This document shows positions 201 to 27,425 of a stretch of 64,000 nucleotides of DNA, piece after piece. The DNA is taken from positions 4,928,001-4,992,000 of the forward strand of contig OZ241362.1 of assembly GCA_965200315.1 (NCBI GenBank), given 5' to 3'. The translations under genes were made by a program, and so were the position numbers. The stretch comes from Candidatus Latescibacterota bacterium. Its GTDB lineage: Bacteria > Latescibacterota > UBA2968 > UBA8231. Each line of letters opens with the position of its first letter. Position 1 is the first letter of the stretch. The notes beneath the pieces were generated by a model. That model made no database searches. It had not been told where the DNA came from and saw only the letters and a list, made by a program, of their open reading frames with translations.

Positions 201-204
201 GGCG

Positions 205-7569: not shown

Positions 7570-7798
7570 TTGTTTCCTTTCTCTGGGGAGTCGTAGCGAA
7601 TCCACATCCGTCGTTGAACTCGAAATAATTGATTTTTATAGCTGACTATATATGCGGTTACAGAAAACAGCACAAGGGAGATATTCGACGGCCTGCGCTA
7701 GATCGCGTCCCGCCAGCATTTTGACGCTGATACAAGGCTTGGTATCTTCCTTGCCAAACTACGCCTTTTCCCAATCATCCCCTAACCGGAGCCTCGCC

Positions 7799-9969: not shown

Positions 9970-10546
9970 CGACGATGCGGCGGAAGGTGAGGTTGAGGCG
10001 CAGGGCGCAGGGCCGTCGGGTCTTGGGGACTTGGTGCTGCCAGTGGGCTTGGGTTGGGCCGCGCATGATGAGCAGCGCACCGTGCCCGAGGGGTATTTCG
10101 ACCGGGGGGTGGTCGCGGCGTTTGTGCCGCAGGAGGAAGCGCCGGGTCTCGCCCAAGCTCAGCGAGGCGATCGTCGGGTTGGCTCCCAACTCGGGCTCGT
10201 CGTCGCTGTGCCAGCCCATGCTGTCGCGACCATCGCGGTACTGATTGAGCAAGACGCTGTTGAAGGGACAGTCGGCGGCGGCTTCGAGCCGCGTCTTGAG
10301 GTCTAGCAGCGGCGCGGTCCACGGGCGCGGCTCTAGCGTTAGTCCCGAATAGGCGTAGTGGGCCTCCGTGGCCCCGTGCCACGCCGAAAGCCGCGGCGCG
10401 GGATGCTGGCGGCCAAAGACGACGACGTGGTGTTGTTGCCACTCAATGTCGTCCAACAGTTGCCGCATGAATTGGTCGGCCTCGGCCGGGGCCAAGAAGT
10501 CGGGGGCGTAGCGGAGGTCGCTGTCTGGGAGGGGAATGGGCCTCAT
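9938..10546 (-). CDS. AlkB-family 2OG-Fe(II) dioxygenase (ALKBH2/3-like DNA repair)
   Basis: FNSVLLNQYRDGRDSMGWHSDDEPELG, IASLSLG, WQHQVPK, RLNLTFR. Confidence 0.9.
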   Translation of the reverse strand: MRPIPLPDSDLRYAPDFLAPAEADQFMRQLLDDIEWQQHHVVVFGRQHPAPRLSAWHGATEAHYAYSGLTLEPRPWTAPLLDLKTRLEAAADCPFNSVLLNQYRDGRDSMGWHSDDEPELGANPTIASLSLGETRRFLLRHKRRDHPPVEIPLGHGALLIMRGPTQAHWQHQVPKTRRPCALRLNLTFRRIVATRRPPTDAP

Positions 10547-11442
10547 TCCACTGAGAAGCCGAGGCCGTCTAGTGCTTGGCACAGCGCGGCGCGGCCCGCC
10601 TCGTCGAACGGGACGCGGGGCGGGCGAGCAGGGCCTACGGGTAGTCCGCGCATGGTCAACATCTCTTTGACGGCCGCTAGCAGGTCAAAGTGGAATAAGG
10701 TGGAGATGACCTCGTTGGCCCGCGCTTGCAGGGCCATGGCTGGCTGGATGTCGCTGGCTTCAAAGTGTTGCCGCATTTCCACGAACAGTTTGGGCATGAT
10801 GTTGTAGGTCGAGCCAATGGCCGCGTCGCTGCCGGCGACCATACCGCCGAGGCAGATTTCGTCCGGGCCGGAGATGAGGTTAAGGTGGTCGCCGCCTAGC
10901 TGCACGAGGCGCTGGAAGAAGTAGAAATTGCTGTCAGTGAACTTGAGGCCGCTAAAGTTGGGCACGGCTTGCATGGCTTCGAGGAACTGTTCGGTCGTAA
11001 CGTCTTTGTCGGCCGTGTGGGCGAGCCAATACACGTAGAAAGGCCGGTCGGTGGCCGCGCCAATGGCGGCGTAGTGAGCGACGGCCGCTTGGAGGTCGTT
11101 GGGCTGGTCTATCGGTGCGACCGAAGCCACGGCGTCGGCACCGGCGTCTGCCGCATGCTGGGCCAATTCGACCGCATTGGCCGTGCTCGTCGCGCCGACT
11201 TGGAAGATCAGCGGCACGGCACCGGCGACCGCGGCGATGGTCGCCTCGGCCATGGCCTTGCGTTCAGACACGCTCATGGCGTTCCCCTCGCCCGTGCCGC
11301 CGCAGACGAAGAAGCCATTCGAGCCCGCGTCGATCAGGTGCTTGACGAGCGGCTCGACGCGGGCGGGAGCCAAGGCGCTGCCGTCGTCAGTGAACGGAGT
11401 GACGAGCGCGGGCCAGATCCCGCGCGCCAGTTTGTCGGTCAT
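10543..11442 (-). CDS. DHDPS/N-acetylneuraminate lyase family aldolase
   Basis: PALVTPF, GGTGEG, Schiff-base GLKFTD, AIGSTYN; real start MTDKLARG at 11442. Confidence 0.85.
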   Translation of the reverse strand: MTDKLARGIWPALVTPFTDDGSALAPARVEPLVKHLIDAGSNGFFVCGGTGEGNAMSVSERKAMAEATIAAVAGAVPLIFQVGATSTANAVELAQHAADAGADAVASVAPIDQPNDLQAAVAHYAAIGAATDRPFYVYWLAHTADKDVTTEQFLEAMQAVPNFSGLKFTDSNFYFFQRLVQLGGDHLNLISGPDEICLGGMVAGSDAAIGSTYNIMPKLFVEMRQHFEASDIQPAMALQARANEVISTLFHFDLLAAVKEMLTMRGLPVGPARPPRVPFDEAGRAALCQALDGLGFSVE

Positions 11443-11477
11443 GGTGTGTTGATCCTCTACTATTGAAATGGACGGCC

Positions 11478-12608
11478 CTAAACCACTTGGCCGCCGCGGA
11501 TGGTAGCGACCGGCTCCCAACAGCCACCGGGCCGCTCCTCGCCGTTGACATCGCACAGAGGCAAGGCCGCCTCGTTCCAGTGCAGCACCGCCAAGTCGGC
11601 GCAGGCACCCGGGGCCAAGGTGCCGACTTCGCCCTTTAGGCCCAGCACCTCGGCGGGGCGGGCCGTGGCGCGAGCGAATACCTCGGCTTCGGCCATGCCC
11701 GCAGCAATGAGCTTGGACATGGTGCGGGGCAGGTCGTGTTGGGGGCGGCTGTTGACGTGGCGGTGGTACTAGTCGGTTGAAACCGTGTCGACGAGAAACC
11801 CCTCGGCAATGGTGGCCTCGGCAATGGGAAAGCTGAAGGAGTTCATGCCGTGGCCCAAGTCGAAGAGGACGCCGCGCTGGCGGGCTTGCCATACGTCGTC
11901 GGCAATGCAGTCGCCGTCCATCAGGTTTTCGGGGAGGGCGTTGAGGGAGTAAGTCACTACGTCGCCGGGGCGCAACAGGGCGAGTTGTTCGCGGCGAGAC
12001 CAGTCGGGTTTGAGACGGGTGCCTACCAGCAGCGGTTTGCCGCTCAATTCCGCGGCCTCCAGCCCGGCGGCCATAATGGGGCGCGGGTCCAGGCCGTCGG
12101 CGCAGGCACCGCCAGTGACGGTGACGGCAATGCCCCATATACTCAGGTCGTCTGCGGCGGCTATGGAGTCGGCGCAGGCTTGGGCATCGGCGTCGGCCAA
12201 GTCGTTGAAGCAGCGCACGGGGTGGGTTTCGCCGTGTTTGCACAGGTTGATGGCCAGCAGGACCCGCGTCCGCGAGGCTTCGATCACGGTGCGGCGGTAG
12301 TCGTCTATGTTCACAGCACCGGCATCGCCTTGGGACAGGACGGTGGTGACGCCGCGCGGCAAAAAGTGGATGTCCGGGTCGATGCCAAAGCGCGATTGAC
12401 CGCGCGCTGGGTGGGCGTGCAGATCGACTAGGCCGGGCAGGAGAAGGGCGTCTGGGAAGTCGAGCACGGTGTGGGCTGATCCTTCGATGTCGGGGCCGGC
12501 GGCGACAATGCGGTCGCCGCGGATGGCCACTGCGCCGGGGCCGTCTAGGCCGCTATCCGCGCAGAAGAGCCGCGGGGCACGCACTAATAGGTCGTAGGGT
12601 TCGGTCAT
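11478..12608 (-). pseudogene. Metal-dependent amidohydrolase (dihydroorotase-like/deacetylase) interrupted by an in-frame TAG
   Basis: PGLVDLHAH, DLGHGMNSFSF, DTVSTD-TAG(11769-11771)-YHRH; the same frame continues through TMSKLI...GTLAPGACADLAV. Confidence 0.8.
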
Positions 12609-12612
12609 AGTG

Positions 12613-14964
12613 TTAGTAGGCCACGGCGATGGTGCGGAGCGCGGTGTCGTTGCCGGCATCGGCACCTAGATTGACGCGCAGGACGTACAGGCCGGGGGTG
12701 GCACTCGCTCCGTCGGCGTCGCGGCCATCCCAGGTGAAGAGGCGTTGCGAGCCTTCTGTGCTTGGGGTGAGAGCCGCTACTTGGCGTCCGGCTAGGTCAA
12801 AAATTTCCACCTGTGGCTCGCTACCCTCGACTTTGAAGGCGACGAATCGCACCTCTAGCTGGTCGTTGATGCCGTCGCCGTTGGGGGTTACGGTTGCCGA
12901 GGCCAGTTGCAGGTTGCTGATGAGCTGGCCGCTGCTGGTCAGTTCGGGCAGCATGACGATGTTGGAGCGGCGCTCGGCCGCCTCGACCGACTGCCACAGG
13001 CCCGGTACTTCGCTCGACCCTAGGTCGAGGGCAAAGACGGTGGCGTTTTGCAGCAGGCGAGTAGTGAAGCTCACTTGCAGCGAATCGCCGGAAACCATCT
13101 GCGGCAACGCGATGAGCAGCGAGTCGGCCTGCACGTCCAAGGTGGCCGGAACGACCGGTTCTGAGCCGACCAGTACCGACACGCTCTGGAGGTCAACCGG
13201 CTCGGGGACAGTGAAGCGCATTAGGTCGAAGCCGCTGTCGAGTTCGTCGGTCTCGGGCCAGAGGGTGTAGGTGAAGTGCGTGTCTTGGTTGGGGCTGGCT
13301 TCGCGGGGAGCGACGCTGCCGCGCGCGCCTTGGACTAAGGCGTTTTCGTATTCGACCGAGACCGAATTGACGGTTGGGGCGACAGCGGGGTCGTCGGTGG
13401 AGAGGATCATCTCCAACAGCATGAAGCGGCGCGGGCTATCCGACTTGAAAGACTCACCGGAAAACTGGTACACATTGCTCCAGGCGTCCCAGTCCTCGCC
13501 GACAACGAGGGTGGTGTCGATAGGGCCGCGCAGCACTTTGGGCGAACTAGTCCATTTTTCTTCGGTGATTTCTTCGCCGAGCTTATTGCGGAACGTAAAG
13601 ACCGGGGCTAGCGCGTTGCCCGAACGCGAGCGCAATTGCATTCGGGTGCCCGGAGGCAACTCGGCGTCCCAGTGCAGGGCCTTGATGACTTTGGGCCGTC
13701 CATCGCCGGCTTCCTCGCCGAGGTTGATAAAGGCCGACTGCAACTCGACTTGGGCTGGATAACCCGGAGAGAACAGTTGGATTTCACCCCATTTGGTGAT
13801 GCCCCATCCCCTACAGGTAACGCCGTGCCAGAACAGGTAGCGAGCCTTGCGCGGTGCGAATAGGTAGCGCATGTAAAGCAGGTTGTCGGCGTTGGGGGCC
13901 AGATGGGTGAAGACCTGTTCGTAATCGACGTTTTCGGGCACTTCGACGAGGGGGGCAGTGCCCGTGGCTGGGGTGCCATCGGAAAAGAGGAGGGTATGCC
14001 CCGGCCCGGTGCCAGAGATGGTAAAACCCAAGGTCCCTTCATCCGGCTGCATGGAGTAGATGAACATCTCGTCGATAAAGAACGTCGCGCCCAGGTCTGC
14101 GCGGAACCAAGTGCCGCCTTCGGCCCATTCCGACAGCGCGCCGCGACAGTCGGTGACGGTGTTGTTGGTGTTGAGGTTGGCGTCAAAGAGGTTGAAGGTA
14201 GAGCCGGTGCCATCGCCTTCGGCGAAATTGCCGCGCTGGCTGGTGCCGATGGCAATGTTGTCCCCAATGCCGATGACCTCAATCTCGGCGATGGCAGCGT
14301 CGGCGTTTTGCTCTTCGGAAATGATTTGGATGTACTGGATCAATCGGTAGTGGTTGCGTTCTGCGGGTGTTAAGTCCAAATCGGGGTCCAACACTAGCGC
14401 ACTGTCGCGGCCAGCATAGTGCAGCGGGATGAAGATTTCGGAGTCCGTGTTGGGCCGCGTGGTGCGGAAGGCTTGGCGGTAAAGAAAAAGGTCGTCCGTA
14501 GCCGCGATGCGCACGCCAGAGGTGATGAAGACTCGGAATTGGCGGAATGGACGTGCGCCCTCTTGGTCGGGGAATTTCAGGCGAATCTCGCGGGCCAGAG
14601 CCGCGCGACCTAGGTCGATGGTGATAAACCAATCCTCGCGGGCGTCGTCCGGGCGGGGTTGCCAATAGGTCGTTGGGTCGCCGTCGATGGCCCGCGGAGC
14701 ATCGGCCTCGTTGGAACCGGCTTGCCAGAGGCCGCCGGCGACGGCATCGCCCCGTTTGCGGGTCTCATGCGTGAAAAGGTGGGCATCCTCGACGAGGTTG
14801 ATATCCTTGCGAAATTTGACGACCGAGAGCTGGCCCTGCTCGCCGACTTGGACCAAGCCGAAGGGCTGTTGCCATTGGGCCCATTTCTCGGCGGTGTCAA
14901 AGGAGAGCATGTCAGCCGCAAGTGGGGTGGCTAGTGCGAGGCAGGCGATAATTGCGCGTCGCAT
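12613..14964 (-). CDS. Secreted type-A array protein: two discoidin-like domains and FlgD-Ig/T9SS-B-like C-terminal domain
   Basis: Signal peptide; AIDGDPTTYW and IDLG motifs; TPNGDGINDQL...WDGRD...PGLY...IAVAY; paralog of 17089-19422 and 21525-23870. Confidence 0.8.
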   Translation of the reverse strand: MRRAIIACLALATPLAADMLSFDTAEKWAQWQQPFGLVQVGEQGQLSVVKFRKDINLVEDAHLFTHETRKRGDAVAGGLWQAGSNEADAPRAIDGDPTTYWQPRPDDAREDWFITIDLGRAALAREIRLKFPDQEGARPFRQFRVFITSGVRIAATDDLFLYRQAFRTTRPNTDSEIFIPLHYAGRDSALVLDPDLDLTPAERNHYRLIQYIQIISEEQNADAAIAEIEVIGIGDNIAIGTSQRGNFAEGDGTGSTFNLFDANLNTNNTVTDCRGALSEWAEGGTWFRADLGATFFIDEMFIYSMQPDEGTLGFTISGTGPGHTLLFSDGTPATGTAPLVEVPENVDYEQVFTHLAPNADNLLYMRYLFAPRKARYLFWHGVTCRGWGITKWGEIQLFSPGYPAQVELQSAFINLGEEAGDGRPKVIKALHWDAELPPGTRMQLRSRSGNALAPVFTFRNKLGEEITEEKWTSSPKVLRGPIDTTLVVGEDWDAWSNVYQFSGESFKSDSPRRFMLLEMILSTDDPAVAPTVNSVSVEYENALVQGARGSVAPREASPNQDTHFTYTLWPETDELDSGFDLMRFTVPEPVDLQSVSVLVGSEPVVPATLDVQADSLLIALPQMVSGDSLQVSFTTRLLQNATVFALDLGSSEVPGLWQSVEAAERRSNIVMLPELTSSGQLISNLQLASATVTPNGDGINDQLEVRFVAFKVEGSEPQVEIFDLAGRQVAALTPSTEGSQRLFTWDGRDADGASATPGLYVLRVNLGADAGNDTALRTIAVAY

Positions 14965-14976
14965 CACAATCTCCTC

Positions 14977-17019
14977 TTAGTAGGCAATGCCCAAAGGGCG
15001 GAGTTGGGGGGCGGCGGCAAATTCCGAGCGCAGGTTTAAGGCCGTCAGGTAGAGGCCGGGCGGCAGCCACTGGCCCGTTTCGTCGCGGCCATCCCAGCGC
15101 AAACTCTGCGGACCCGCGTTCTGCAAGCCAGCCTCGACGAAGGCCACGCGCCGCCCGTCGAGGCTATAGACCTCGAGGACGACAGGCACGGGTTCGGGCA
15201 GGCGGAACAGCGAGTAGGCCACTCGCAACTCGTCGTTGATGCCGTCGCCGTTGGGCGTGAAGACCGCGGAGGACAAAGTCAGGTTCTGAATGAAGGCGGT
15301 TGTTTGCTCGGTAGCGCCGAGTACGCGCAGGCTGTTGGTCGAGAGGGCCTCGCCGACATCGGCACCGATTACAGGTTGCGGCAGGATGTCGCGTTCGCTG
15401 TCTAGTACTTCGCTTTGGAATGTGGTAGCGAATTCAAAGATCTCCGTGCCAAAGACAATGCGGATCGGTGGATTGTTGGTGCGGGTGATGCGCTCGGGTA
15501 GGCGGATGAGTAGGCCCTCGGGCTCTTGGACGACCTCGGCGGGCGCAGTTTCCGTGCGGTTCGCGCCTAGTTGCAGGCTTTTGAGTTCGGTGTGGTGCCC
15601 GGTGCGAATGCGCAGCAGGTCGAAGCCGGGGGCATTTACGGCCTCAAAATCGGCTTGGAGATCATAGACGAATTCTATGGATTCGCCGAGGGGGACTTGG
15701 GTGATCCCGCCGACAGGTTGTGGGTCGTCTAGGAGAGCGACTTCGCCGCGCACATTGGCGGCCAACAGCGGGGCGGTTTCGAGCCACAGCGAGTCGAGGC
15801 GCACGAAATCGTCGAAGGAATCGCTTTCCATGATGACGCGGAACTGCAAATAGGTGCCGTTGCGCAGGCTGATCGGTTGACCCGATTCGACGAAGGGTGC
15901 AGACCAGAAGGTCCAGTTGTCTGAATCGTAGCCGATGGACGCGCGGACGCCGGGTTTGGGCTGGCGTTCGCTCAGGTCGGATGTGGCGGTGATGCGCACG
16001 AAGCGGGTGCGCAGGGCGTTTTCGTAGTGGTCGCGCGAGACCACGCGCTCTAGCCCGGTGTCCATGTACTCGTGATAGACGGCCGGGTCGTCGTCTAGTC
16101 CGGTGCGGATTTCGATCTTGATCTGGGCCGCTGCATCGGGGGTTTCCACCGGGGTCCCATTGACCATGCGGAATTTTGTCGCCTGCCAGAACAGCCGTCC
16201 GAAATTCACCGGTTCGCCGAGGTCGGTTATCTTGGTCTTGTAGATGGTCCGTTGCGGTACCCCTTGGGCAAACAGTTGGAACTCGCTGATCGAGCCGATG
16301 AGGGCAAAGGCGACCAAGTTGTTGGCCGCGGTCAGGGTTACGCGGTCTTCGTCGAGGAGCGAAAGTCGCCGTTGGTAGCGGAAAAAGCGCAGATACTGGC
16401 GGTTGAAGTCAATGCGGACCTGCGGGACAAAATTGTTGTCAACATCGGCGATGACAGTGGAGAGCGGGTTGACATTGCCTTCGAGTACTGGGACTTCGGG
16501 CGCGACTGAGGCGGTTACCTGAAAAGCGGGAATGAAGTCCGTTTCCAGTGGGGTGCCGTCGGAGCGGAAACCCTCGCTGGGCGGGATAAAGCCGAAGGCA
16601 ACCGCCGGCACCGACACGGCCAAATCCATGGTGAAGGTTTCTTTTTGGATGAGGTCGGCTTTGGGGGGGTTATAGGTGAGAGGGTCGCCGTCGATGAGCC
16701 AAGAGCCGTTTTCCGAAGGGTCGGGCACGCCGTGGTTCCACTTCCACATCCGCGGCGTTTCGCCATCGAGGTAGTCGAAGACGCGGTCGCTGGGGTCGCG
16801 CCAGAAGGCCCAATTGTCGATGTGAGAAAAAACCGTTTCATCCAGCGTGAAGTACGTGGGCTGGATGGCACCGGGGGTGGTTGCGAAATCGACGAAGAGG
16901 CGGGTGGTGTCGTTCTCACTCCAGGATAGGCCGCTGCCGCCTAGCTGCCAGTGGGAAATCTGGGCGGTGGTGTTTTGCGCTAAAATTAGGGTGAGCAGGA
17001 CGATTGTGGCACGGCGCAT
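14977..17019 (-). CDS. Secreted type-B array protein with FlgD-Ig/T9SS-B-like C-terminal domain
   Basis: Signal peptide, WQLGGSG start, LIDGDPLTY, VNFGRLFW, TPNGDGINDEL...LGIAY; GGAGAG RBS before ATG 17019. Confidence 0.8.
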   Translation of the reverse strand: MRRATIVLLTLILAQNTTAQISHWQLGGSGLSWSENDTTRLFVDFATTPGAIQPTYFTLDETVFSHIDNWAFWRDPSDRVFDYLDGETPRMWKWNHGVPDPSENGSWLIDGDPLTYNPPKADLIQKETFTMDLAVSVPAVAFGFIPPSEGFRSDGTPLETDFIPAFQVTASVAPEVPVLEGNVNPLSTVIADVDNNFVPQVRIDFNRQYLRFFRYQRRLSLLDEDRVTLTAANNLVAFALIGSISEFQLFAQGVPQRTIYKTKITDLGEPVNFGRLFWQATKFRMVNGTPVETPDAAAQIKIEIRTGLDDDPAVYHEYMDTGLERVVSRDHYENALRTRFVRITATSDLSERQPKPGVRASIGYDSDNWTFWSAPFVESGQPISLRNGTYLQFRVIMESDSFDDFVRLDSLWLETAPLLAANVRGEVALLDDPQPVGGITQVPLGESIEFVYDLQADFEAVNAPGFDLLRIRTGHHTELKSLQLGANRTETAPAEVVQEPEGLLIRLPERITRTNNPPIRIVFGTEIFEFATTFQSEVLDSERDILPQPVIGADVGEALSTNSLRVLGATEQTTAFIQNLTLSSAVFTPNGDGINDELRVAYSLFRLPEPVPVVLEVYSLDGRRVAFVEAGLQNAGPQSLRWDGRDETGQWLPPGLYLTALNLRSEFAAAPQLRPLGIAY

Positions 17020-17088
17020 GATGGCTCTCCTTCCCGAGGGAGGCATGTAATATAATGAGCGGCAAGCAATTGTCCTATTTGCGGCAGA

Positions 17089-19422
17089 TTAGTACGCCAC
17101 GGCGATGGTGCGCAGCGCCGTATCGTCGCCAGCGTCAGCGCCTAAGTTGATGTGGCAGAGGTAGGTGCCGGGCGGCACGAGGTCGTCTTGAGTGGTGAGT
17201 CCGTTCCAAGTAAAGACGTGAGCCACGCCGTCGATGGTGGGAGGAGCTAGCTGGGCGATGGGCCGTCCGGCGAGGTCGAAAATGCGCACTCGGGGTGTGC
17301 GTTGCCTGACCTTGAAGGCGACGAAGCGGATAACCACTGAGTCGTTGATGCCGTCGCCGTTGGGGGAGAGCACTGGCGGGGAAATCGAGAGGTCGTCGAT
17401 GAGTTGGGTCGTGCCGGTCAGGTCGGGCAGCATGACGATATTGGCGCGGCGCGTGATGGGTTCGACCGATTGCCACAAGTCTGGATGGCTGCTCGAACCT
17501 AGGTCGAGACTGAAGAGCGTGGCGTTGTGTAACACGCGGGTGGTGAAGCTGACTTGGACGGAGTCGGCGCTGATTGCGCGGGGCAGGCCGATTTGTAGGG
17601 TATCGGCGCTGATGTCGATGGAAGATGGCTCGACCTGAGTGCTGCCCACGCGGACTTCGACCGCGGAGGCCTCCGAGGGTAGGTCAAAGCGCAGCAGGTC
17701 GAAACCCGCGTCCGCGGCATCGGCGGCGGAGACTAGGGTGTACGTGAAGCGGGTGTCCTCGTTGGGCTGGGCGACTTTTGGGGTGATCAGGCCGCGTGCG
17801 CCCTGCAACAGCGCGTCCTCGTACTCAAGCGATAGTGCGTCAATCGCCGGGGCCACCTGTGGATCGTCGGTTGAGAGGATCAATTCCAACTGCGCGAAGC
17901 GGCGCGGACTTTGCGACTTAAATGCCTCGCCGGAAAAGGTGTACGCCTCGCTCCATCCATCCCAGTCTTCGCTGACCACGACGGTGGTGTCGATTTTTCC
18001 CCGCAGCACTTTGGGCAGGCTGATCCATTGCTCCTCGGTAATCGGCTCGCCGATCTTGTCGTGAAAGGCATAGACTTCGCCTTGGGTATTGCCCGAGCGC
18101 GAGCGCACTTGCAGGTGCGAACCGGGCGGGATGTCGGCGTCCCAAGAGAGACGGCTGATGACTTTGGGCCGCCCGTCGCCAGCGGCCGCGCCGAGATCGA
18201 TAAAGTCCGAGCGCATGATCACTTCGGCGGGATGGCCCGGCGAAAACAGCATCAGTTCGGTCCAGCGCGAGCCCCAGCCTTGGGGGGTGTGGGCGTGCCA
18301 AAACATGTAGCGGACTCTGCGCGGTTGGAACAAATAGCGCAGATAACGCATGGGGTTGAGGTCGGGTTGGTTGATGAGGGCGGCGAAGTCGAAGGATTCG
18401 GGGATGGGGAGTTGAGAGCTGATGACGCGGGTGCCGTCTGAGTGGAGAAAGGTAAAGCCGCGCGGAGGGCTGGCCACGGAACCGACCGTGCCTTCGCGCG
18501 GCCGGAGCGCGTACAGGAAAAGCTCGTCGATCCAGAATACGGCTCCTAGGTCGATGAAAAACCAAGTGCCCTGATCCTCCCAAGTGCGGACGCGGCCCTC
18601 AAAGCCCACGGGCAAAATGGAACTGGCAGTGTTCATGTCGCCGTCGAGGATGTTTTCGGTGGAGCGGGCGGTGAGTCCGTCGATGATGCTGCCGCGGCGG
18701 TCGTTGCCCAAGCTGACGTTGTCGCCGACAGCCATGACTTCGATCTCGGCTAGCGCGCCTTCAGGATCAAAGTCTTCAACGGTGAAATTGATGTACTGGA
18801 TGAGGCGGTACTGGTTGAATTTTTCTAGATCGACGGCGCGGCCGGAGTCGAGGACTTGGGCGCTGTCTTGGAGGTCAAAGGCGAGGGGGAACGAGAGCGT
18901 GGTGTCCCGGTTGGGTCGGGTCGTGAGATAGACCGGGCGAAAGATAAAGAGGTCGTCGAGGGCGTCGGAAGTGATGCCGGTGGCGGTGAAGACTGTGAAC
19001 TGGCGGAAGGGACGAGCGCCTTCTTGGTCGGGAAAGTGCAGGCGGATCTCTTTGGCCAGCACGGCGCGACCGAGGTCAATCTGCACGAACCAGTCGCCGA
19101 GCGCGTCGTCGGGAGAGGCCTGCCAGAAGGTCTCGCGGTCGCCGTCGATGATTCGCCTAGCCGCGGTCGGGTTGCTGCCGGCTTCCCAGATTCCGCCGCG
19201 CACGTTGGCACCGCGCGAGCGGGTGCGGTGGGTAAAGTGGGGCGCGTCGGCTACGGCGTTGATGTCCTTGCGGAATTTGACTAGTCGCAACCGACCGCCA
19301 TCGTCGAACTCGATCAGGCCGTAGGGCCGCTTCCAAGTGGACCAGCTAGCGGCGCTGTCGAAGCGGAATTCCGCGGCCGCGAGAGCCGTTGCCGAACAAA
19401 GGACTGAAAGCAGCAGGCGCAT
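17089..19422 (-). CDS. Secreted type-A array protein
   Basis: Same architecture: IIDGDRETFW, FPDQEGARPFRQF, SPNGDGINDS...IAVAY. Confidence 0.8.
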   Translation of the reverse strand: MRLLLSVLCSATALAAAEFRFDSAASWSTWKRPYGLIEFDDGGRLRLVKFRKDINAVADAPHFTHRTRSRGANVRGGIWEAGSNPTAARRIIDGDRETFWQASPDDALGDWFVQIDLGRAVLAKEIRLHFPDQEGARPFRQFTVFTATGITSDALDDLFIFRPVYLTTRPNRDTTLSFPLAFDLQDSAQVLDSGRAVDLEKFNQYRLIQYINFTVEDFDPEGALAEIEVMAVGDNVSLGNDRRGSIIDGLTARSTENILDGDMNTASSILPVGFEGRVRTWEDQGTWFFIDLGAVFWIDELFLYALRPREGTVGSVASPPRGFTFLHSDGTRVISSQLPIPESFDFAALINQPDLNPMRYLRYLFQPRRVRYMFWHAHTPQGWGSRWTELMLFSPGHPAEVIMRSDFIDLGAAAGDGRPKVISRLSWDADIPPGSHLQVRSRSGNTQGEVYAFHDKIGEPITEEQWISLPKVLRGKIDTTVVVSEDWDGWSEAYTFSGEAFKSQSPRRFAQLELILSTDDPQVAPAIDALSLEYEDALLQGARGLITPKVAQPNEDTRFTYTLVSAADAADAGFDLLRFDLPSEASAVEVRVGSTQVEPSSIDISADTLQIGLPRAISADSVQVSFTTRVLHNATLFSLDLGSSSHPDLWQSVEPITRRANIVMLPDLTGTTQLIDDLSISPPVLSPNGDGINDSVVIRFVAFKVRQRTPRVRIFDLAGRPIAQLAPPTIDGVAHVFTWNGLTTQDDLVPPGTYLCHINLGADAGDDTALRTIAVAY

Positions 19423-19428
19423 CAGACG

Positions 19429-21438
19429 TTAGTACGCAACGCTGAGGGCCAATAGTTGCTTGGCTTGGACGGATTGGGTGTGCAGCGCGAGGGAGAGCAG
19501 GTAGAGGCCCGGTGGAAGAAGCTGGCCGGTCTCGTCGCGGCCATCCCAAGTGATCACTTGAGGGCCGGAGTCTTGCAGGCCCTTGTCGAGGCGGGCGATG
19601 CGGCGGCCATCCAAGGCGTACACTTCGAGTGCTAAGGGCACCGCGCCGGGAAGGCGAAAGAGCGAATAACGCATCTGGAGTTGGTCGTGGACGCCGTCGC
19701 GATTGGGGGTCAGCACCGGGGTAGACAAAGCGAGCGATTGGATAAAGCCGGGCGTTGCGTCGTCTGCACCCAACACCCGCAGGCTGTTGGTGGAAACTGC
19801 CGCGCCGGCGTCGCCGGCCAAAATCGGCTGGGGGAGCGATTGGCTGTCAGCGGCAAAAATTTCGCCGGTGAAGGTGGAGGCGAATTCAAAAACGGCAGTG
19901 GCGAAGGTCACGCGGATCGGCGCGTTGTTGGTGCTGGTGACGCGCTGGGGCAATTGGATCGTCAGCCCGTCGTCTTCGGTTATTGCGACGGGGTTGACGG
20001 GAGCGAGCGGAGTGCCCATTTCGAGGCTGCCGAAGGCCGTGCGGCTGCCGGTGTGAATCCTGAGCGCGTCGAAGCCGGGCGCGCTGGCGTCGTCGAATGC
20101 GGCCCGCACCTGATAGACAAATTCGGTCTCTTGGCCCAAGGCCACTTCGGTAAAGCCGCGCTTGGGTTGCGGGTCGTCGCGCCGCGCCACTTCGGCCAAG
20201 ACCTCGGCGGCCAAGAGCGGCGCGGTCTCAAGCCACAGCGAATCAATCCGCATCCAAGCGTCGAAGTCGCGGCTTTCTAAGGAGAGGTCCACCTGTAAAT
20301 GCGAGCCGCTTCTGAGCCGGACGGTTCGACCCGACTCGGTAAAAGGCTCCGACCAGAAGGACCAGTTGGCTGAATCGTAGCCAATAGAGGCGCGAATGCC
20401 GGGTCGTGGGTCGCGGTTGAGCTGGGCGGTGAGCGCCTCGTAGTGCTCGCGTGCGACCTCCTTTTCGCGGCCGATGTTGGTGTATTCGTGGTACGTCGCC
20501 GGGCTGTCGTCGCGGCCGACGCGGACCCTCGCCTTGAGCCAGACGGGGGCGTCGGGATCTGCGACGACTGCGCCATCGACCAAGCGCAGCGGCGTACCTG
20601 CCCAGTGCAGGCGACCAAAATTTACGACTTGGCCGAGACCGACGACTTGGCTGAGGTACACGACGCGCTGGGGTATGCCTTGGCCGAAAATTTCGAATCC
20701 CCCGATTGAGCCTTTGAGCGCGATGGCTTGGTTGCCTTGGCCGCCGCAGTCGCGGCAGATGTTGAGGGCTTCCTCGTCGGCCAGCGACGTCTGCCGGCGC
20801 CAGCGAAAGAAGCGCACGTATTGGCGCGGGAAGTCGATGCGGACGACGGGGTCGAAGTTGGTCCCCACGTTGGCGATGACTTGCGTGAACAGCTCTCTAC
20901 CGCCCGAGTTGACCGCGGGTTCTGAGTCCGAACCGACGGAGACGTCGAAGGCCGGCGTGGTGTCGAACGGCAGCGGCGTACCATCGGAGCGAAAACCCTG
21001 CGAGGGCGTGAAAAAGCCGAAGCCCACACCGGGGATCGGCACGGCCGTGTCAAGCGAAAAGAAGGTGCTGGCTATCGATTGGCTCCTAGGAGCGTTGTAG
21101 GTGGTGGAATCGCGATCGACTAAGAAGACGCCGCTCTGGGTAGGATCGCCGCCGACGCCGTTCCAGCGGTTCCAAAAGCGCGGCTTTTGGCCATCGACGT
21201 AGCCGAGGTTGTGCAGGGAGGGCTCGCGCCAGAATTGCCAGTTGTCGAGTAGGTGAATGACGTTTTGCTGCGGCTGCAAGTAGCGCGGCTGGATCGCACC
21301 GTCGGCAAAATCGACGAGGACGTGGAGGGAGTCGCGCTGGTCCCACGCCGCCCCACTGCCGCCGAGTTGCCACTTTTCTACTTGCGCGTAGCTAGGGGAG
21401 ATCGCGAGGCCTAGAATCAAAGGCCAAGCTCTGCACAT
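19429..21438 (-). CDS. Secreted type-B array protein
   Basis: WQLGGSG, GFRSDGTPL, VNFGRLHW, TPNRDGVHD...LSVAY; CxxC in a variable loop. Confidence 0.8.
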   Translation of the reverse strand: MCRAWPLILGLAISPSYAQVEKWQLGGSGAAWDQRDSLHVLVDFADGAIQPRYLQPQQNVIHLLDNWQFWREPSLHNLGYVDGQKPRFWNRWNGVGGDPTQSGVFLVDRDSTTYNAPRSQSIASTFFSLDTAVPIPGVGFGFFTPSQGFRSDGTPLPFDTTPAFDVSVGSDSEPAVNSGGRELFTQVIANVGTNFDPVVRIDFPRQYVRFFRWRRQTSLADEEALNICRDCGGQGNQAIALKGSIGGFEIFGQGIPQRVVYLSQVVGLGQVVNFGRLHWAGTPLRLVDGAVVADPDAPVWLKARVRVGRDDSPATYHEYTNIGREKEVAREHYEALTAQLNRDPRPGIRASIGYDSANWSFWSEPFTESGRTVRLRSGSHLQVDLSLESRDFDAWMRIDSLWLETAPLLAAEVLAEVARRDDPQPKRGFTEVALGQETEFVYQVRAAFDDASAPGFDALRIHTGSRTAFGSLEMGTPLAPVNPVAITEDDGLTIQLPQRVTSTNNAPIRVTFATAVFEFASTFTGEIFAADSQSLPQPILAGDAGAAVSTNSLRVLGADDATPGFIQSLALSTPVLTPNRDGVHDQLQMRYSLFRLPGAVPLALEVYALDGRRIARLDKGLQDSGPQVITWDGRDETGQLLPPGLYLLSLALHTQSVQAKQLLALSVAY

Positions 21439-21524
21439 CGAGCACCGTACCTCCGCTGAGGTGAATAATATGTGGGAAGATAAGGCAAAAAGAGCTATGC
21501 GCCGAATTAATGGGATAGGACTTC

Positions 21525-23870
21525 CTAATAGGCGACGGAGATCGTGCGTAGGGCCGTATCGTCACCGGCGTCGGCACCCAGATTGACGCGCAGGACGTAG
21601 ATGCCAGGCTCTACGACTGCGCCACTGGCTTGGGTGCCGTCCCAAGCGAAGAGGTGGTGCAAGCCCTCGGCGACTGGCGTGAGAACCGCTACTTTGCGCC
21701 CGGCGAGGTTGAATACTTCCACTCGGGGCTCGCGGCCTTCGACTTTAAGGACGATGAACCGCACCTCTAGCTGATCGTTGATGCCGTCGCCGTTGGGCGT
21801 GAGTGTCGGCGAGGAAATGAAGAAGTCGTCGATAAGCTGGCTGCTACGGGTCAGTTCGGGCAGCATGACGATATTGGCCCGGCGTGTTGCCGGTTCGACC
21901 GACTGCCAGAGGCCCGGATGCGCGCTGGAGCCTAAGTCCAACGCAAAGAGCGTGGCATTGCGCACTAAGCGGGTGGTAAAGTGGACGCGGACCGAATCGT
22001 CTCTGACTGGTTCGGGTAAAGCGATGAGCAGGGAGTCGCCGCGCCGGGAAGCTGCTGCCGAGACGGTTTCTACGCCCTTTTCCACGCTCACGCTAGGCAG
22101 GTTAATCGGCCCCGGTAGGTCGAAGCGCATGAGGTCGAAGCCGACGTCATCGGGGCCGGCGCTGGGCAGCAGAGTATAGGTGAAGGCCGTCTCCTCATTG
22201 GGAGGAGCACTGCGCGGCTCGACGCGCCCGTGGGCACTCAGGAGTAGCGCCGCGTCGAATTCGATCGACAGGGTGTTGACTGTGGGCGCGACCTCGGGGT
22301 CGTCGGTGGCGAGAATCAACTCCAGTTGTACAAAGCGCCGCGGACTTTGCGATTTAAAGGTTTCACCGGAAAATTGGTACACATTGCTCCACGCATCCCA
22401 GTCCTCGCCGACCACTAGCGTGGAGTCAACCGGGCCGCGCAGCACTTTGGGCGAGCTATTCCATTTTTCTTCGGTGATTTCCTCGCCGATTTTGTTGTGG
22501 AAGGTATAGATCGGTGCCAGCGCGTTGCCCGAACGCGAGCGCAGTTGCATTCTGGCTGCTGGAGGCAGGTCGGCGTCCCAGTGCAGGGCCTTGATGACTT
22601 TGGGCCGCTCGTCGCCGGCTTCGGCACCGAGGTCGATGAAGCCCGAAGTAAGCACAACTTGGGCGGGATGACCTAACGAGAACAGCATAAATTCGGCCCA
22701 TTTGGATTCGAGCCAGCCTTGGTCGGACAGGCCGTGCCAGAACAGATAACGCATCTGGCGCGGGCGGAATTTGTAGCGGATGCGGTAGAGGTCTGCGGCT
22801 GCGGGATTGTCGTGGGTGAGCAGTTCGCTGTAGTCGAGTGGCGCGGGTACGGGCAGAGAAGTGCCCACGCTGCGGCTGCCGTCGGAGAACAGGATGCGGT
22901 GCCCTGAGCCAGCACTGCCGCGATGACTGCCGGTGGTGCCCTCAAAGCGGCGCAAGACGTAGATAAACAGCTCATCGACGAAGAACACGGCCCCCATATC
23001 GACGTAAAACCAAGTGCCGGCCCCCTCCCACCCTTGGTCGCCGCGGCCCGAGGTGATGAGGTTGTTGGTGTTGATATCGGCGTCGAAGAGATTGGCGGGT
23101 GCGGCGGCGACCGTGCCGTTGAGGAAGCTGCCGCGCTCGGCGGCGCCGATGCTGATGTTGTCGCCCACAGTGAGTATTTCGACTTCGGCGAGCGCGGCAG
23201 CTAGGCTCTGGTCTTCGACGACGATACTGATGTACTGAATTACTTGATAGCGGTTTTCAAAGGTTCGATCAATGGCCATATCTGGATCAACCGTCAGGAC
23301 GGTATCGGTGGCCGGATACTCGAGGGGAATGGTCAGGGAAGTGGCGCGGTTGGGCTGGGTGGTGCGATAGACTGGCTCGTATTTGAAAACGTCGGCCGTA
23401 GCTTGGATGCGCGCCCCGGTGGTGCCATAAACGGTGAACTGCCGCAGCGGGTGCGCACCTTGTTGGTCGGGGAAGGTCAGGCGAATGTGGCGGGCGAGTA
23501 CAGCGCGTCCCAAGTCTATATCGAGGAACCAATTTTTGAGCTCGTCGTTCGGGTCGGGTTGCCAGAAGGTCGCGGGATCGCCATCGATGGCGTTTGCGGC
23601 TGTCGTGCGCCCGCTGCCGGCCTGCCAAATTCCGCCTGCCACTTCGCCGCGTTCTTGGGTGGAATGGGTGAAGAGATGGGCGTCGCGGATGGCATCCACT
23701 TCCTTGCGGTATTTGGTCAGGCGCAGCACACCTTCTGCATCCACCTGGACCAGCCCGGCAGGCATGGTCCAGCTTTGCCATTTTTCTGCGCTGTCGAAAC
23801 TCAGCATTTCGGCCCAGCCGGCAACAGCCGGCACAGCGAGCCAAGCTATAAGGGCAACGAGAAAGCGCAT
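21525..23870 (-). CDS. Secreted type-A array protein
   Basis: Start MRFLVALIAW at 23870, 1 nt after the upstream stop; AIDGDPATFW; TPNGDGINDQL...ISVAY. Confidence 0.8.
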   Translation of the reverse strand: MRFLVALIAWLAVPAVAGWAEMLSFDSAEKWQSWTMPAGLVQVDAEGVLRLTKYRKEVDAIRDAHLFTHSTQERGEVAGGIWQAGSGRTTAANAIDGDPATFWQPDPNDELKNWFLDIDLGRAVLARHIRLTFPDQQGAHPLRQFTVYGTTGARIQATADVFKYEPVYRTTQPNRATSLTIPLEYPATDTVLTVDPDMAIDRTFENRYQVIQYISIVVEDQSLAAALAEVEILTVGDNISIGAAERGSFLNGTVAAAPANLFDADINTNNLITSGRGDQGWEGAGTWFYVDMGAVFFVDELFIYVLRRFEGTTGSHRGSAGSGHRILFSDGSRSVGTSLPVPAPLDYSELLTHDNPAAADLYRIRYKFRPRQMRYLFWHGLSDQGWLESKWAEFMLFSLGHPAQVVLTSGFIDLGAEAGDERPKVIKALHWDADLPPAARMQLRSRSGNALAPIYTFHNKIGEEITEEKWNSSPKVLRGPVDSTLVVGEDWDAWSNVYQFSGETFKSQSPRRFVQLELILATDDPEVAPTVNTLSIEFDAALLLSAHGRVEPRSAPPNEETAFTYTLLPSAGPDDVGFDLMRFDLPGPINLPSVSVEKGVETVSAAASRRGDSLLIALPEPVRDDSVRVHFTTRLVRNATLFALDLGSSAHPGLWQSVEPATRRANIVMLPELTRSSQLIDDFFISSPTLTPNGDGINDQLEVRFIVLKVEGREPRVEVFNLAGRKVAVLTPVAEGLHHLFAWDGTQASGAVVEPGIYVLRVNLGADAGDDTALRTISVAY

Positions 23871-23871
23871 T

Positions 23872-25884
23872 TTAGTAGGCGATGCCCAGCGGATGCAGCA
23901 GGCGTTCACTGATGCCTTCGGATTGCAGCGCTACTTCGAGCAGGTAGAGGCCGGGCTGTAGGAGTTGCCCCTGCGCGTCGCGTCCATCCCAGCGAAGGTG
24001 CTGCGGTCCAGCAGCCTGCGGCGCAAACGACAGGCGTGCGACTTGCCGGCCATCGAGAGAATAGGCCCGCAGTTCGACGGGTACGCTAGCAGGCAGGCGG
24101 AAGAGGGAATAAGATACCTGCACTAGGTCGTTTACCCGGTCGCCGTTGGGAGTCAAAACTGGCGTTGAAAAGCGCAGGTTCTGGATGGCGTTGACAGGAC
24201 CGCCTTTTGCACTCAGAACGCGCAGGCTGTTGGTCGATACGGCGGGTGTGGCATCGCCGCCGCGGATGGGTTGGGGTAGGCTTTGGGTTGCGGTGTCGAT
24301 GGCCTCGCCTTCAAAGGTCGTGGCGAAGACGAAGACATCGGCCATGAACTCGATGCGGATGGGCGCGTTGTTGGCGGCGTGGACCCGCTCGGGCAGTTCG
24401 ATGAAGAACTCGTCGTCGTTGATCTCGACCCGGCGGGGCTCGACGGACACCAATGGATCGCCCATTGCCAACGTTGGAAGGTGGACTCGGCTGCCGGTGC
24501 GGATGCGCAGCGCGTCGAAGCCTAGCTCTGAGGCGGCGAAGTCGGCGCGAATATCGTAGCTGAAGCCAGTCGCCTGCCCTAGGGCCACTTCGGTGAAACC
24601 GCTCGGTTGCGGGTCGTCGAGGCGGGCGACTTCGCCAATGATCTGACTGGCGAGAAGCGGTGCTTGCTCGATCCACAGCGAATCTAGGCGCGTAAAGGCG
24701 TCGAAATCCGCGCTGTCGAGGGTAATTTTGACTTGGATATGGGAGCCGCTGTGGAGGTTGAATGGCTGGCCAGACGCGGTGAAGGCGGGCGACCAGAAGG
24801 TCCAGTGGTCCTCGTCATAGGCTATTGACGCGCGGACTCCAGGCCGCTCGCCGGCGACGTAGCCGTAGCCCTGCGACTCCTTGAGTTCAAACTCGTACCG
24901 CTGGCGCGAGACTTCAACCTCGCGGCCCTTGTCGTCAAATTCGCGGTACACGTTGGGGTCTTGGTCTCTACCGGTGCGCACCTCGACGCGCAACCCGACA
25001 GCCGCGGCCGGATCCGGGACCAAGGTGCTGTCCACCATTCGCATGGAGGTCGCCGACCAGAACAGCCGGCCAAAGTTCACTTCCGAGCCCAGATCGATGA
25101 TTTTGGATAGATATAGTACGCGTTGCGGGATTCCGCGGGCGTAGAGTTCAAAGTCGCCGATGGTGCCTGGCCGCGCTTGACCCGACAGCGAATTCTTTTG
25201 GATGACCAAGGTCGGATCGAGTACCGACTCGTTGCGACGCCAGCGGATGAAGCGGACATATTGGCGCGGCATGTCGATTTGCACGGTGGGGGACAGATTT
25301 TCGGCGACATTGGCGATAAGCGGGCCAATGGGCGCGTAGGCGTTGTGCCCATGCCATTCGGGATCGGCTTCGGTGGCAACGCTCACTTCAAAGGCGGGCA
25401 CCGCATCTTCGGCCAGTGGAGTACCATCCGAGCGGAACCCACGCGGTGGCGTGAAAAAGCCGAAGCGGGTGGCCGGGACGGGCACCGCCACGTCAAAAGT
25501 AAACCAGTCGAAGTTCCGCAGGTCCGAGGACGGGGGGTTGTAGGTGGTGCTGTCGCCGTCAACTAGATACGTGGCATTGTGTACGGGTCGCGAGTCGCCC
25601 AAGCCCAGCTTCCAAGCGCGGGGCCGCTGGCCATCGACATAGCCGAGTTCGCGGGGGAATTTCCACGGAGACCAGTTGTCGAGGTGCGAAAAAACGGTTT
25701 GGGCCGAGGTCAGGTAGATGGGCTGGATGGCCCCGGGGACGGAATCGAAGTCGATGAAGATGCGTACCGAATCGCTCGCCGACCATGCAAGGCCACCGCT
25801 GCCGCCGAGCTGCCAAGTGCTTATTTGCGCCGACAGAACACTGGGCAGGAGAAGCGGAAAGAGGGTGGCAAAGATGCGGTGCAT
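23872..25884 (-). CDS. Secreted type-B array protein
   Basis: WQLGGSG, LVDGDSTTY, VNFGRLFW, TPNGDRVND...LGIAY. Confidence 0.8.
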   Translation of the reverse strand: MHRIFATLFPLLLPSVLSAQISTWQLGGSGGLAWSASDSVRIFIDFDSVPGAIQPIYLTSAQTVFSHLDNWSPWKFPRELGYVDGQRPRAWKLGLGDSRPVHNATYLVDGDSTTYNPPSSDLRNFDWFTFDVAVPVPATRFGFFTPPRGFRSDGTPLAEDAVPAFEVSVATEADPEWHGHNAYAPIGPLIANVAENLSPTVQIDMPRQYVRFIRWRRNESVLDPTLVIQKNSLSGQARPGTIGDFELYARGIPQRVLYLSKIIDLGSEVNFGRLFWSATSMRMVDSTLVPDPAAAVGLRVEVRTGRDQDPNVYREFDDKGREVEVSRQRYEFELKESQGYGYVAGERPGVRASIAYDEDHWTFWSPAFTASGQPFNLHSGSHIQVKITLDSADFDAFTRLDSLWIEQAPLLASQIIGEVARLDDPQPSGFTEVALGQATGFSYDIRADFAASELGFDALRIRTGSRVHLPTLAMGDPLVSVEPRRVEINDDEFFIELPERVHAANNAPIRIEFMADVFVFATTFEGEAIDTATQSLPQPIRGGDATPAVSTNSLRVLSAKGGPVNAIQNLRFSTPVLTPNGDRVNDLVQVSYSLFRLPASVPVELRAYSLDGRQVARLSFAPQAAGPQHLRWDGRDAQGQLLQPGLYLLEVALQSEGISERLLHPLGIAY

Positions 25885-25955: not shown

Positions 25956-27176
25956 CTAGGCCCTGAATGGCACCAGCCAATCCTCCTCAATCCCCAAGTC
26001 AAAGCCCGGTCCGCACGGCGCAAATTCCAAGTAGCTTTCTTTAGGCACCAGTGCCCCGGACTCGGCTACTTCCTCCAGCGGAATCCCCGGGGCCGAGCCA
26101 ATGTAGTACTCGCCCCAAGGCGTGTTGGGCATGGCCCAAGTCAAGTGCTGGCCGTAAGGATCGCGCCCGCCGCCGTGGAGGCAGACTTCGAGGCCGGCGG
26201 CCTCGGCCATGTGGCAGATTTTGATACAGGCGGTCAGCCCGCCGACCCAGTGGATATCGGGTTGCAGCACATCGAGGGCGCGGTGCTCGATCATTTGTTG
26301 ATAGGGGTAGTGCGTGTAGAAGTGCTCGCCGCTGGCCAGCGTTTGCCAAGGCAGGCATTCTTTGAGTTTGATGTGGCTTTTGACGTCTTCGGGGATCAGG
26401 CACTCCTCCAGCCAGCGCAACTTGTAGGGTCTGAGGCGCTCGGCTAGGCGGACGCTGTATTCGACGTCAAAGGCCATGTAGCAGTCGAGCATGAGTTCGC
26501 AGTCATCGCCGATTAATGCGCGGACTTCGGCAATCCGCCGCTCGTTTTGGTCTAGGCCCCACAGGCCGTCGACCGGGCCGTATTGGCAGGGGAGTTTGAA
26601 GGCTCTGAAGCCCAGCTCGCGGTACCAATCGACGTCGTCGCCGGTGGCGTAGGTGAAGATGCGCTCGCGGGCCGGGCCGCCGATGAGCTGGTACACGGGC
26701 TTTTGTTGCAGCTTGCCGGCCAAGTCCCACAGCGCGAGGTCCACGGCGCTGATGGCGACGGTGGCGATGCCGACCGTGCCGAAAGGTTTGGAGACGCGGA
26801 ACATCATATCCCACAACTTGTCGATGGCCAAGCAGTCTTCGCCTATGAGGATATGGGCGAAAGCGTCTTCGACGACCGCAGCGGCGGGCCGACCAGCCGC
26901 CGTGCCCAGCCCCCAAGTGCCGTCTTCGGCTGTGACTTTGACCGCGAAGCCGGGCCATTGCCGGGCACCGTAGAGTTGACGCCGGGGCTTGAAACGCGGA
27001 AAGCGCGACATTGGGTTGGCCACTTCGATTTCGGTGGGCCAAGCCTTGCGGTGGGGTTGGCTCTGCTGAGCCGGGGCCGTCGAGGCGGAGAGCGTCGAGC
27101 CGGCTTGGGAACGGGCGCGGAGCGAAGGCCCGTCGGGGCGTTCGACGCGGACTAGGTCGATGGATTTGATTTTCAT
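25956..27176 (-). CDS. Mandelate racemase/enolase-superfamily acid-sugar dehydratase (L-rhamnonate dehydratase-like)
   Basis: AISAVDLALWDL, FKLP, LMLDCYM, WLEE, SGEH, QPDIHWVGG; start MKIKSI at 27176. Confidence 0.8.
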   Translation of the reverse strand: MKIKSIDLVRVERPDGPSLRARSQAGSTLSASTAPAQQSQPHRKAWPTEIEVANPMSRFPRFKPRRQLYGARQWPGFAVKVTAEDGTWGLGTAAGRPAAAVVEDAFAHILIGEDCLAIDKLWDMMFRVSKPFGTVGIATVAISAVDLALWDLAGKLQQKPVYQLIGGPARERIFTYATGDDVDWYRELGFRAFKLPCQYGPVDGLWGLDQNERRIAEVRALIGDDCELMLDCYMAFDVEYSVRLAERLRPYKLRWLEECLIPEDVKSHIKLKECLPWQTLASGEHFYTHYPYQQMIEHRALDVLQPDIHWVGGLTACIKICHMAEAAGLEVCLHGGGRDPYGQHLTWAMPNTPWGEYYIGSAPGIPLEEVAESGALVPKESYLEFAPCGPGFDLGIEEDWLVPFRA

Positions 27177-27425
27177 TGCTTTAGACGCCTTAGAGTTAAA
27201 TTTCCGTGAATGTATCTTATATCTAATGAATCCATAAAAACCAGCGGTGCTATTCGCTGGAGGCAATCAGCCACAGTCAATCTCGATCAGCAAGCGGCAA
27301 TGGTCGCTTGATCCCTCGTTGCATAAATTCCTTTGTCGAAATGACTTGGAATGCTGAATATACGAACGAATTTGGCGAATGGTGGGATGGATTTTCAGAG
27401 AGCGGACAGGACGACATTACCGCCT

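Follow-up and report, generated by a model that had tools for sequence, protein, structure and literature searches.

The window analysed here, 64,000 nucleotides (nt) of the genome of a Candidatus Latescibacterota bacterium, contains six open reading frames (ORFs) on the minus strand, running from 25884 down to 12613 in the strictly alternating order B1-A1-B2-A2-B3-A3 and encoding two types of large, putatively exported surface protein, B and A. Coordinates are those of the whole window; the source genome is called G000, and positions written G000:C1 are those of its contig. By sequence comparison the array is a barrel-less satellite derived from one mother cassette elsewhere in G000. We favour, by a little over even, the interpretation that the locus provides three swappable B+A modules, each specific for a ligand, to a surface complex that has its fixed parts encoded at that mother cassette.

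The six-gene array

The ORFs agreed with the initial annotation on six co-oriented genes, on the alternation of B and A, on their sizes and on the gaps, which were 1, 6 and 12 nt within the pairs and longer between them (Table 1). The gaps between pairs had also been described as AT-rich and as possible sites of separate promoters. Neither idea was upheld: their GC content was ordinary beside the median of 51% of 605 comparable intergenic gaps of G000, and a sigma-70 scan returned one site where 2.6 were expected by chance.

The motifs reported for B (WQLGGSG, GFRSDGTPL and VNFGRL.W) were present in all three B proteins. Two of those reported for A (FPDQ.GA.P.RQF and RPKVI..L.WDA) likewise occurred in all three A proteins, the other, KFRKDIN, being exact in two of them and reading KYRKEVD in A1. 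All six tails ended in AY as described, with WNG in place of WDG in A2. Each protein began with a basic-hydrophobic-Ala N-terminus, read by eye as a putative Sec signal peptide. The A proteins were 53-60% identical to one another and the B proteins 50-51%. A and B had been presented as two types; over 318-529 aligned C-terminal residues they are 23-28% identical, and at the sequence level they are two branches of one family, as distant paralogues. Contigs of four metatranscriptomes from one study covered the array and its flanks alike, so that DNA carry-over is a possible source of this coverage.

Table 1. Genes, domains and gaps of the array and its conserved flanks (window coordinates)
Feature	Position	Strand	Description
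B1	23872..25884	-	Class-II B subunit, 670 amino acids (aa); domains by homology to the B2 model, in the order signal peptide, split base domain, one discoidin head, immunoglobulin-like (Ig) domain, Tyr-ended C-terminal domain (CTD)
A1	21525..23870	-	A subunit, 781 aa, two discoidin heads; start 1 nt past the B1 stop
B2	19429..21438	-	Class-II B subunit, 669 aa; modelled
B2 discoidin (CBM32-like) head	20683..21252	-	Residues 63-252
A2	17089..19422	-	A subunit, 777 aa; modelled
A2 second discoidin head	18244..18723	-	Residues 234-393
A2 C-terminal domain, type IX secretion system (T9SS)-like	17092..17418	-	Residues 669-777, end VAY; same tail in the other five genes
B3	14977..17019	-	Class-II B subunit, 680 aa; tandem-duplicated in some relatives
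A3	12613..14964	-	A subunit, 783 aa; a GTG at 14967 would add one residue
Gap between pairs 1 and 2	21439..21524	-	86 nt, 48% GC
Gap between pairs 2 and 3	17020..17088	-	69 nt, 51% GC; only sigma-70-like match, within chance
Upstream flank (conserved, context only)	25956..27266	-	Mandelate racemase/enolase-superfamily gene
Downstream flank (conserved, context only)	10543..12665	-	Amidohydrolase-like gene, then DHDPS-family aldolase

Gene family and mother cassette

G000 is a single contig of 5.36 Mb, 94.7% complete and 7.8% contaminated. Profile searches recovered 109 ORFs of the family, 103 of them full-length with the tail; together the family takes up 234,777 nt, or 4.4% of G000, the genome of an uncultured lineage. 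A Tyr was the last residue in 101 of the 103, whereas 38 other proteins matching the tail profile mostly ended in LLK/LLR-like motifs, which divides the tails of G000 into two classes. One family-like protein (G000:C1:3165357-3167384) had a non-Tyr C-terminus and did not match the tail profile.

A second family, F1, consists of putative outer-membrane barrels of about 900 aa, with 41 ORFs in G000 (37 of them of 870-1049 aa). As many as 84 of the 103 full-length members had an F1 gene at a distance of 20 kb or less, and for the window genes the nearest one was 93-100 kb away. Each of 22 cassettes typed by hand, one copy being picked where there were extra copies, contained one A and two B genes (14 By+Bz, seven Bn1+Bn2 and one Bx+Bx), and in 21 of the 22 the two B genes belonged to different tree classes. 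The distances in the A and B trees were correlated across the typed cassettes (r 0.86-0.91). Class-I B genes (By, Bn1) were near F1 in 21/21 cases; 9/36 class-II B genes (Bz, Bn2) and 10/39 A genes were far from it, five members standing outside these class counts. The B genes of the window are class II.

The family tree, built with FastTree from the shared C-terminal 460 residues, separated A from several B classes and placed the window genes in two young subclades of seven A and nine B genes. The same subclades hold the B and A genes of just one cassette with F1, a class-I B and a peptidyl-prolyl isomerase (PPIase, F4), located at G000:C1:251858-271949; we call it the mother cassette. It also carries TPR and FG-GAP/ASPIC proteins. 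The two-gene system first proposed was therefore right as to the B→A pair, which is real, and too narrow as to the whole, since the larger cassette adds a second B class and a putative barrel to the one A and its B.

F1 was present in 31 of 61 genomes sampled from the phylum, and an alignment of 11 F1 sequences gave no match to solved structures. At E up to 1e-30 the B-type profile found 748 cluster representatives, some of which matched only by their tail repeats. Two further observations concern these families. The F1 family alignment (A8) has an invariant Asp/Asn-rich stretch (VDDNDDQD, D.ENNDFISDFNQN) at about 498-600 of the first sequence, which looks like repeated calcium-binding loops. 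A second cassette class has single-A satellites (G000:C1:4703275, with kin at 502105, 1429723, 3120066 and 5193050) and seems to vary A alone.

It could be argued that every B-A pair suffices by itself as a heterodimeric adhesin or lattice unit, which a T9SS would export and which would be anchored without the cassette barrel. Such a unit would suit the lack of a barrel gene within 93 kb of the window, the duplication of B→A as one piece and the presence in G000 of a PorU-like sortase able to anchor cargo. We nevertheless consider it unlikely, given that most family members are found near F1, that A is accompanied by two B genes in every typed cassette, and that the window genes nest within the B and A subclades of the mother cassette. 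The Tyr-ended tail also differs from the 38 canonical tails, suggesting a dedicated receptor.

Pairing of B and A genes

That A always follows B held for 89 of the 92 best A matches, which had B directly upstream, and failed for the other three. In a set of 105 A and 104 B sequences, all 560 aa or longer, we found 88 adjacent B→A pairs. The A and B trees were congruent (Mantel r 0.78 over 17 paralogue-group representatives, with 11/14 splits shared; r 0.92 on patristic distances over the 88 pairs), and together with the pairing counts this supported the duplication of B→A as a unit. An obligate 1:1 relation had exceptions in extra B3 copies, extra A copies and a solo B (4401071); one satellite (820535) was in the order A→B. 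A recent tandem triplication of the array was rejected, because each pair was closer in the trees to dispersed pairs than to its array neighbours.

Linkage alone predicts much of the agreement between the trees, and a stronger sign of partnership came from a pair whose genes are separated. Two lineages were unpaired, one of 14 A sequences (269601 type) and one of eight B sequences (2978925 type). They fell into matching clades with an ultrafast bootstrap (UFBoot) of 100 each, and the other members of these clades were adjacent pairs in G016 and G017. The orphan A 269601 and the orphan B 2978925 of G000 were 2.7 Mb apart and both intact, and both lineages were kept in seven genomes (G000, G001, G004, G005, G009, G010 and G016), counting those in which both loci are in the data. 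A mutual-information analysis of coevolution over 100 paired rows (35 effective sequences) returned hypervariable sites as its top inter-chain columns.

A and B might instead be independent surface lectins that dock separately and share only an operon and a class of ligand. Co-duplication would then be explained by linkage, and the extra B3 and A copies, the solo B and the A→B satellite would be readily accommodated; the matching orphan lineages retained in seven genomes would not, nor would the class-specific arms of the base domain, which are conserved in both A and B. We regard separate lectins as slightly more doubtful still than self-sufficient pairs, and continue to prefer swappable B+A modules.

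Predicted folds and loop variation

AlphaFold2 models of A2 (mean predicted local distance difference test, pLDDT, 90.1; predicted template modelling score, pTM, 0.79) and B2 (87.7 and 0.75) were used to describe the architecture of the proteins, the domain layout being read from the secondary structure of the models together with fold matches. The base was modelled as a split β-sandwich, its first piece short and N-terminal and its second lying later in the chain, with the discoidin heads, two in A and one in B, inserted between these pieces; an Ig-like domain and then the tail followed. Compared with the CBM32 chain 4a42_B, A head 1 gave Z 16.1 (root-mean-square deviation, rmsd, 2.0; 125 aligned) and the B head Z 13.0 (rmsd 2.3; 123 aligned). 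The two-head arrangement of A resembled b1b2 of 2qqi (Z 13.4, 267 aligned), and residues 562-669 of B2 resembled the PorU CTD 6za2 (Z 11.6, rmsd 2.5, 99 aligned). The CBM32-like heads and PorU-CTD-like tail of the models thus bore out the initial description of discoidin proteins with a T9SS-like tail.

The base matched the Pa223 tail chain 9nwi_Y (Z 12.2, rmsd 2.1, 122 aligned) and the phage tail chains 8jov_A (Z 11.2) and 7z47_G (Z 10.2), all with the same split topology; residues 2..509 of 9nwi_Y aligned to 19..408 of B (Z 12.2) and 15..537 of A (Z 12.1). The structure chains were assigned to Pa223 and SU10 proteins by length. The models therefore predict a base fold in common with the phage tail hub, from which a common function does not follow.

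Sequence searches recovered little beyond the tail. Pfam and NCBIfam matched only this part (FlgD_ig, CHU_C and weak T9SS models), plus a marginal F5/8 domain in A, with FlgD_ig or CHU_C over the Pfam cut-off in five of the six proteins and at 26.2 against 27 in A2. That no catalytic motif is recognisable was supported, as the cores had no enzyme family match in either database and the enzyme-named matches, chiefly PorU at the tail, were all far under the cut-off. A sequence search of solved structures with A2, B2 and the B alignment matched only FlgD-type tails, and Foldseek gave no whole-chain match (best query template modelling score, TM-score, 0.24 in the PDB and 0.19 in the viral library). 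None of the six proteins matched PHROG at E up to 1, a comparison of sequences only, and the hubs themselves diverge strongly: according to the accessible part of one report, phage hubs share only 10-21% identity among themselves (10.1101/2025.06.11.659172).

Conservation differed among the domains. Across the 17 paralogue groups, conservation was highest in the base (0.64 in A, 0.56 in B) and lowest in A head 2 (0.45) and the B head (0.43). Fixity among orthologues was assessed within seven orthologue groups. All five segments of A that varied among paralogues and were fixed among orthologues were in head 2 (A2 residues 234-393), and five of the six such segments of B were in the head, the sixth being at the tip of a base arm. 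The segments that varied in both comparisons were in the signal peptide, Ig domain, linker, tail and one loop of A head 1. At the paralogue-hypervariable columns, the identity among orthologues was 0.91 for A head 2 and 0.88 for the B head, compared with 0.75-0.80 in the Ig domain and CTD. A receptor repertoire had been one of the roles first suggested, and this pattern of loop sequences points to receptors with stable, distinct specificities. Antigenic variation was rejected because the variable loops were fixed among orthologues.

As to the ligand, galactose-binding CBM32s have a His after the DGD..T.W motif. No His was found at that column in any of 100 rows, A head 1 having Q in 75, R in 17 and K in eight, and the Trp of the motif is missing from A head 2 and the B head. 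By analogy, the captured ligand is most likely a glycan or other polymer.

The resemblance to hubs raises the possibility that the proteins are ring or nozzle subunits placed over a barrel in a secretion or delivery device, with heads that bind protein cargo or host receptors. The shared split N+C topology would suit such a device, as would the TPR and FG-GAP/ASPIC proteins of the mother cassette; in the text available of its description, the Pa223 gp59 hub is a hexamer whose insertion domain comprises residues 2-46 and 403-512 (10.1101/2025.06.11.659172). However, the channel of the phage hub is lined, in the same text, by a β-propeller where discoidins stand here, the window showed no recognisable genes for a tube, needle or effector, and fixed, paralogue-specific head loops suit receptors better than scaffolds, so that we find this explanation improbable. 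It is very improbable indeed that we are dealing with secreted enzymes whose active site escaped recognition, even though CBM32 domains usually ride on hydrolases (according to the descriptions of the structure matches) and catabolic genes lie in the flanks, since both models are nearly all β-sandwich, every domain was matched by binding or structural folds and the cores matched no enzyme family in Pfam or NCBIfam.

Possible export route

SprA (TIGR04189), PorV (PF19572) and a C25 PorU-like protein (PF01364) were all over their cut-offs in G000. Scans of G000 for GldM and GldN (TIGR03517/TIGR03523) and for PorP/SprF (PF11751) gave no match, and their controls were likewise blank. With the type B CTD model TIGR04131, whose cut-off is 35, the three A proteins scored 15-20 bits and the three B proteins gave no match; nor was a porP/sprF-like gene found directly downstream of the array, where the next gene is amidohydrolase-like. 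In the accessible text of two studies, Flavobacterium type B cargo use cognate shuttle barrels, three orphan cargo sharing one (PMC12618676), and type B cargo remain bound to PorP-like barrels (PMC9143113). Type B cargo and their shuttles may serve as the closest working analogy, although the tests for type B failed on TIGR04131 and on the downstream gene.

Two other genes of the window touch on this route. A 1583-aa protein (30943-35694) combines eight lamin-tail domains and an acidic repeat with a canonical type A CTD and is, judging from its domains, ordinary T9SS cargo. A 350-aa protein (36832-37884) with weak PorV/UPF0164 matches is a possible further T9SS shuttle barrel.

The array in relatives and its neighbouring genes

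The nearest named loci to B2 (88-91% identity) were labelled Ca. Latescibacterota, and other close homologues were labelled as Gemmatimonadetes or Latescibacterota metagenome-assembled genomes. Under strict thresholds, window-type A and B were found in 18/18 genomes of the genus and 0/12 other genomes of the class. We compared 80 loci from 14 relatives, picked from the best 150 of 254 A matches and the best 150 of 204 B matches, with flanks of about 7 kb where single pairs lay in complete genomes and shorter ones for arrays and draft genomes. F1 was present in seven and the PPIase F4 in eight of these loci, all of them orthologues of the mother cassette.

The three-pair array was kept between the enolase-family and amidohydrolase-aldolase genes in G001, G002, G010, G011, G012 and G013, with B3 doubled in G001, G010 and G012. 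Pair 1 was absent from G007, G004 had pair 3 only, pair 2 of G005 was in pieces, and pair 1 of G009 was divergent with its gene order swapped. Cognates were intact despite their separation by insertions (G002, G007) or the swap of order (G009). Elsewhere in G000 (G000:C1:5166564-5169164), a deletion has joined a B gene to the remaining C-terminal part of its A partner, and the pair is intact in several relatives.

Downstream of A3, codon 299 of the amidohydrolase-like gene is a TAG (11769-11771, minus strand), and the orthologues of this gene are about 373-416 aa long. The base at 11771 differed in contigs of three of the four RNA runs, so that the TAG is either a strain allele or an assembly error. 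A link with sugar-acid catabolism through the nearby enolase-family genes was rejected as weak (2/7 clade loci in G000 against 0.12 expected). Neither the TonB-dependent transporter family nor SusD appeared in Pfam scans of the window ORFs examined. An ORF at 1411-2622 with Fic_N and Schlafen AlbA_2 domains is a possible defence or regulatory gene, and a 503-aa ORF at 7652-9163, in a stretch of lower GC, had no Pfam match.

Proposed mechanism

The interpretation of the locus as three modules for a complex fixed at the mother cassette draws on gene family, classes, linkage, trees and predicted folds, from which we infer export, assembly, docking and ligand. Sec would carry each protein to the periplasm; guided by its Tyr-ended tail, the protein would then pass through the SprA translocon of a T9SS. 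The conserved base domains would bring a class-II B and the cognate A together, and these would then join the class-I B on F1, the outer-membrane protein of the mother cassette. The variable loops of the B head and of the second A head would form the binding site, and each pair would in this way give the common platform a distinct, fixed specificity. A more detailed version, to which we give distinctly less credit and which we put forward only tentatively, is a capture device in which three paralogous T9SS-exported subunits sit on the F1 barrel by means of the hub-like fold and the composite two-chain site of class-II B and A is exchanged as a module, drawn from a library of barrel-less satellite pairs, this array among them, spread over the whole genome. 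If it were true, one barrel would be re-tunable to many ligands, unlike SusCD or PorP/SprF.

Several points weigh against these modules. Neighbouring genes are copied together anyway, so that tree agreement alone is no proof of partnership, and the joint losses (G000 at 5166564, G005 and G007) have the look of deletions that took in both genes and lend it no independent support. Pairing is not strictly 1:1, as 17/105 A and 16/104 B sequences were outside adjacent B→A pairs and four barrel-distant A genes, of another subfamily, had no adjacent B. The identity of F1 as a barrel is putative and comes from a strongly scored Atlas lead. The genomes compared are close kin, with loci drawn from the best matches (150/254 for A and 150/204 for B). 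Finally, the ligand need not be a sugar, given the missing CBM32 His.

Comparison with known systems

As in type B cargo (SprB-SprF, Fjoh_1677 and PG1035-PorP), the proteins have a putative signal peptide and a C-terminal Ig-like tail with TPNGDG.ND, as far as the text available of those studies goes (PMC12618676, PMC9143113). Type B cargo genes also, in the same text of the first study, usually lie next to the gene of a dedicated outer-membrane partner, and cargo without such linkage use a partner encoded elsewhere (PMC12618676). Unlike the PorP/SprF systems, the linked partner is here an unnamed protein of about 900 aa, three paralogous classes of cargo are found in each cassette, what is unlinked is a pair of co-diversifying genes, the host belongs to Latescibacterota and the tail ends in Tyr.

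The heads are like CBM32/F5-8 type C domains and neuropilin b1b2 in their fold, in the b1b2-like pair of A and in a motif like DGD..T.W. Unlike those of CBM32s and discoidins, they are inserted in another domain and have long, paralogue-specific loops; they also differ from CBM32s in standing without a catalytic partner and without the His of the galactose binders. Bacteroidota SusC/SusD loci are many and paralogous, each combining an outer-membrane protein with surface glycan-binding proteins. The system described here is similar in its many paralogous loci and in an outer-membrane protein with binders of differing specificity. It is dissimilar in that no gene for a TonB-dependent transporter or SusD lies beside the array and in that its binders, instead of being lipoproteins, carry a CTD as their tail.

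A description of the family or of the satellite arrangement was not found in the literature searched, which lay mostly outside the subscription journals, and no paper on a Latescibacter with a T9SS was found there. The contribution of this locus is the logic of satellites, a separated pair, the pattern of loop variation and a base resembling that of phage hubs. It would illustrate diversification by one fixed platform and many two-gene specificity modules in trans, and T9SS-type export outside Bacteroidota with a second, Tyr-ended class of tail; it also names variable loops for ligand tests, and cognate and non-cognate pairs for interaction tests.

The base, lastly, is like the podophage hub in being a β-sandwich formed by a short N-terminal and a C-terminal piece around an insert (Z 10-12, rmsd 2.1-3.1 Å, about 120 aligned). 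In the accessible text on the SU10 protein gp17, the platform β-sandwich docks on the adaptor ring (PMC9509320). As far as the phage reports available go, the insert is there a β-propeller, in contrast with the one or two discoidins present here, which are followed by Ig domain and CTD. With 11-14% identity in the structural alignments, the likeness is one of fold only, taken from models, and on that footing it would connect the platform fold found in phage tail hubs with a bacterial surface protein.

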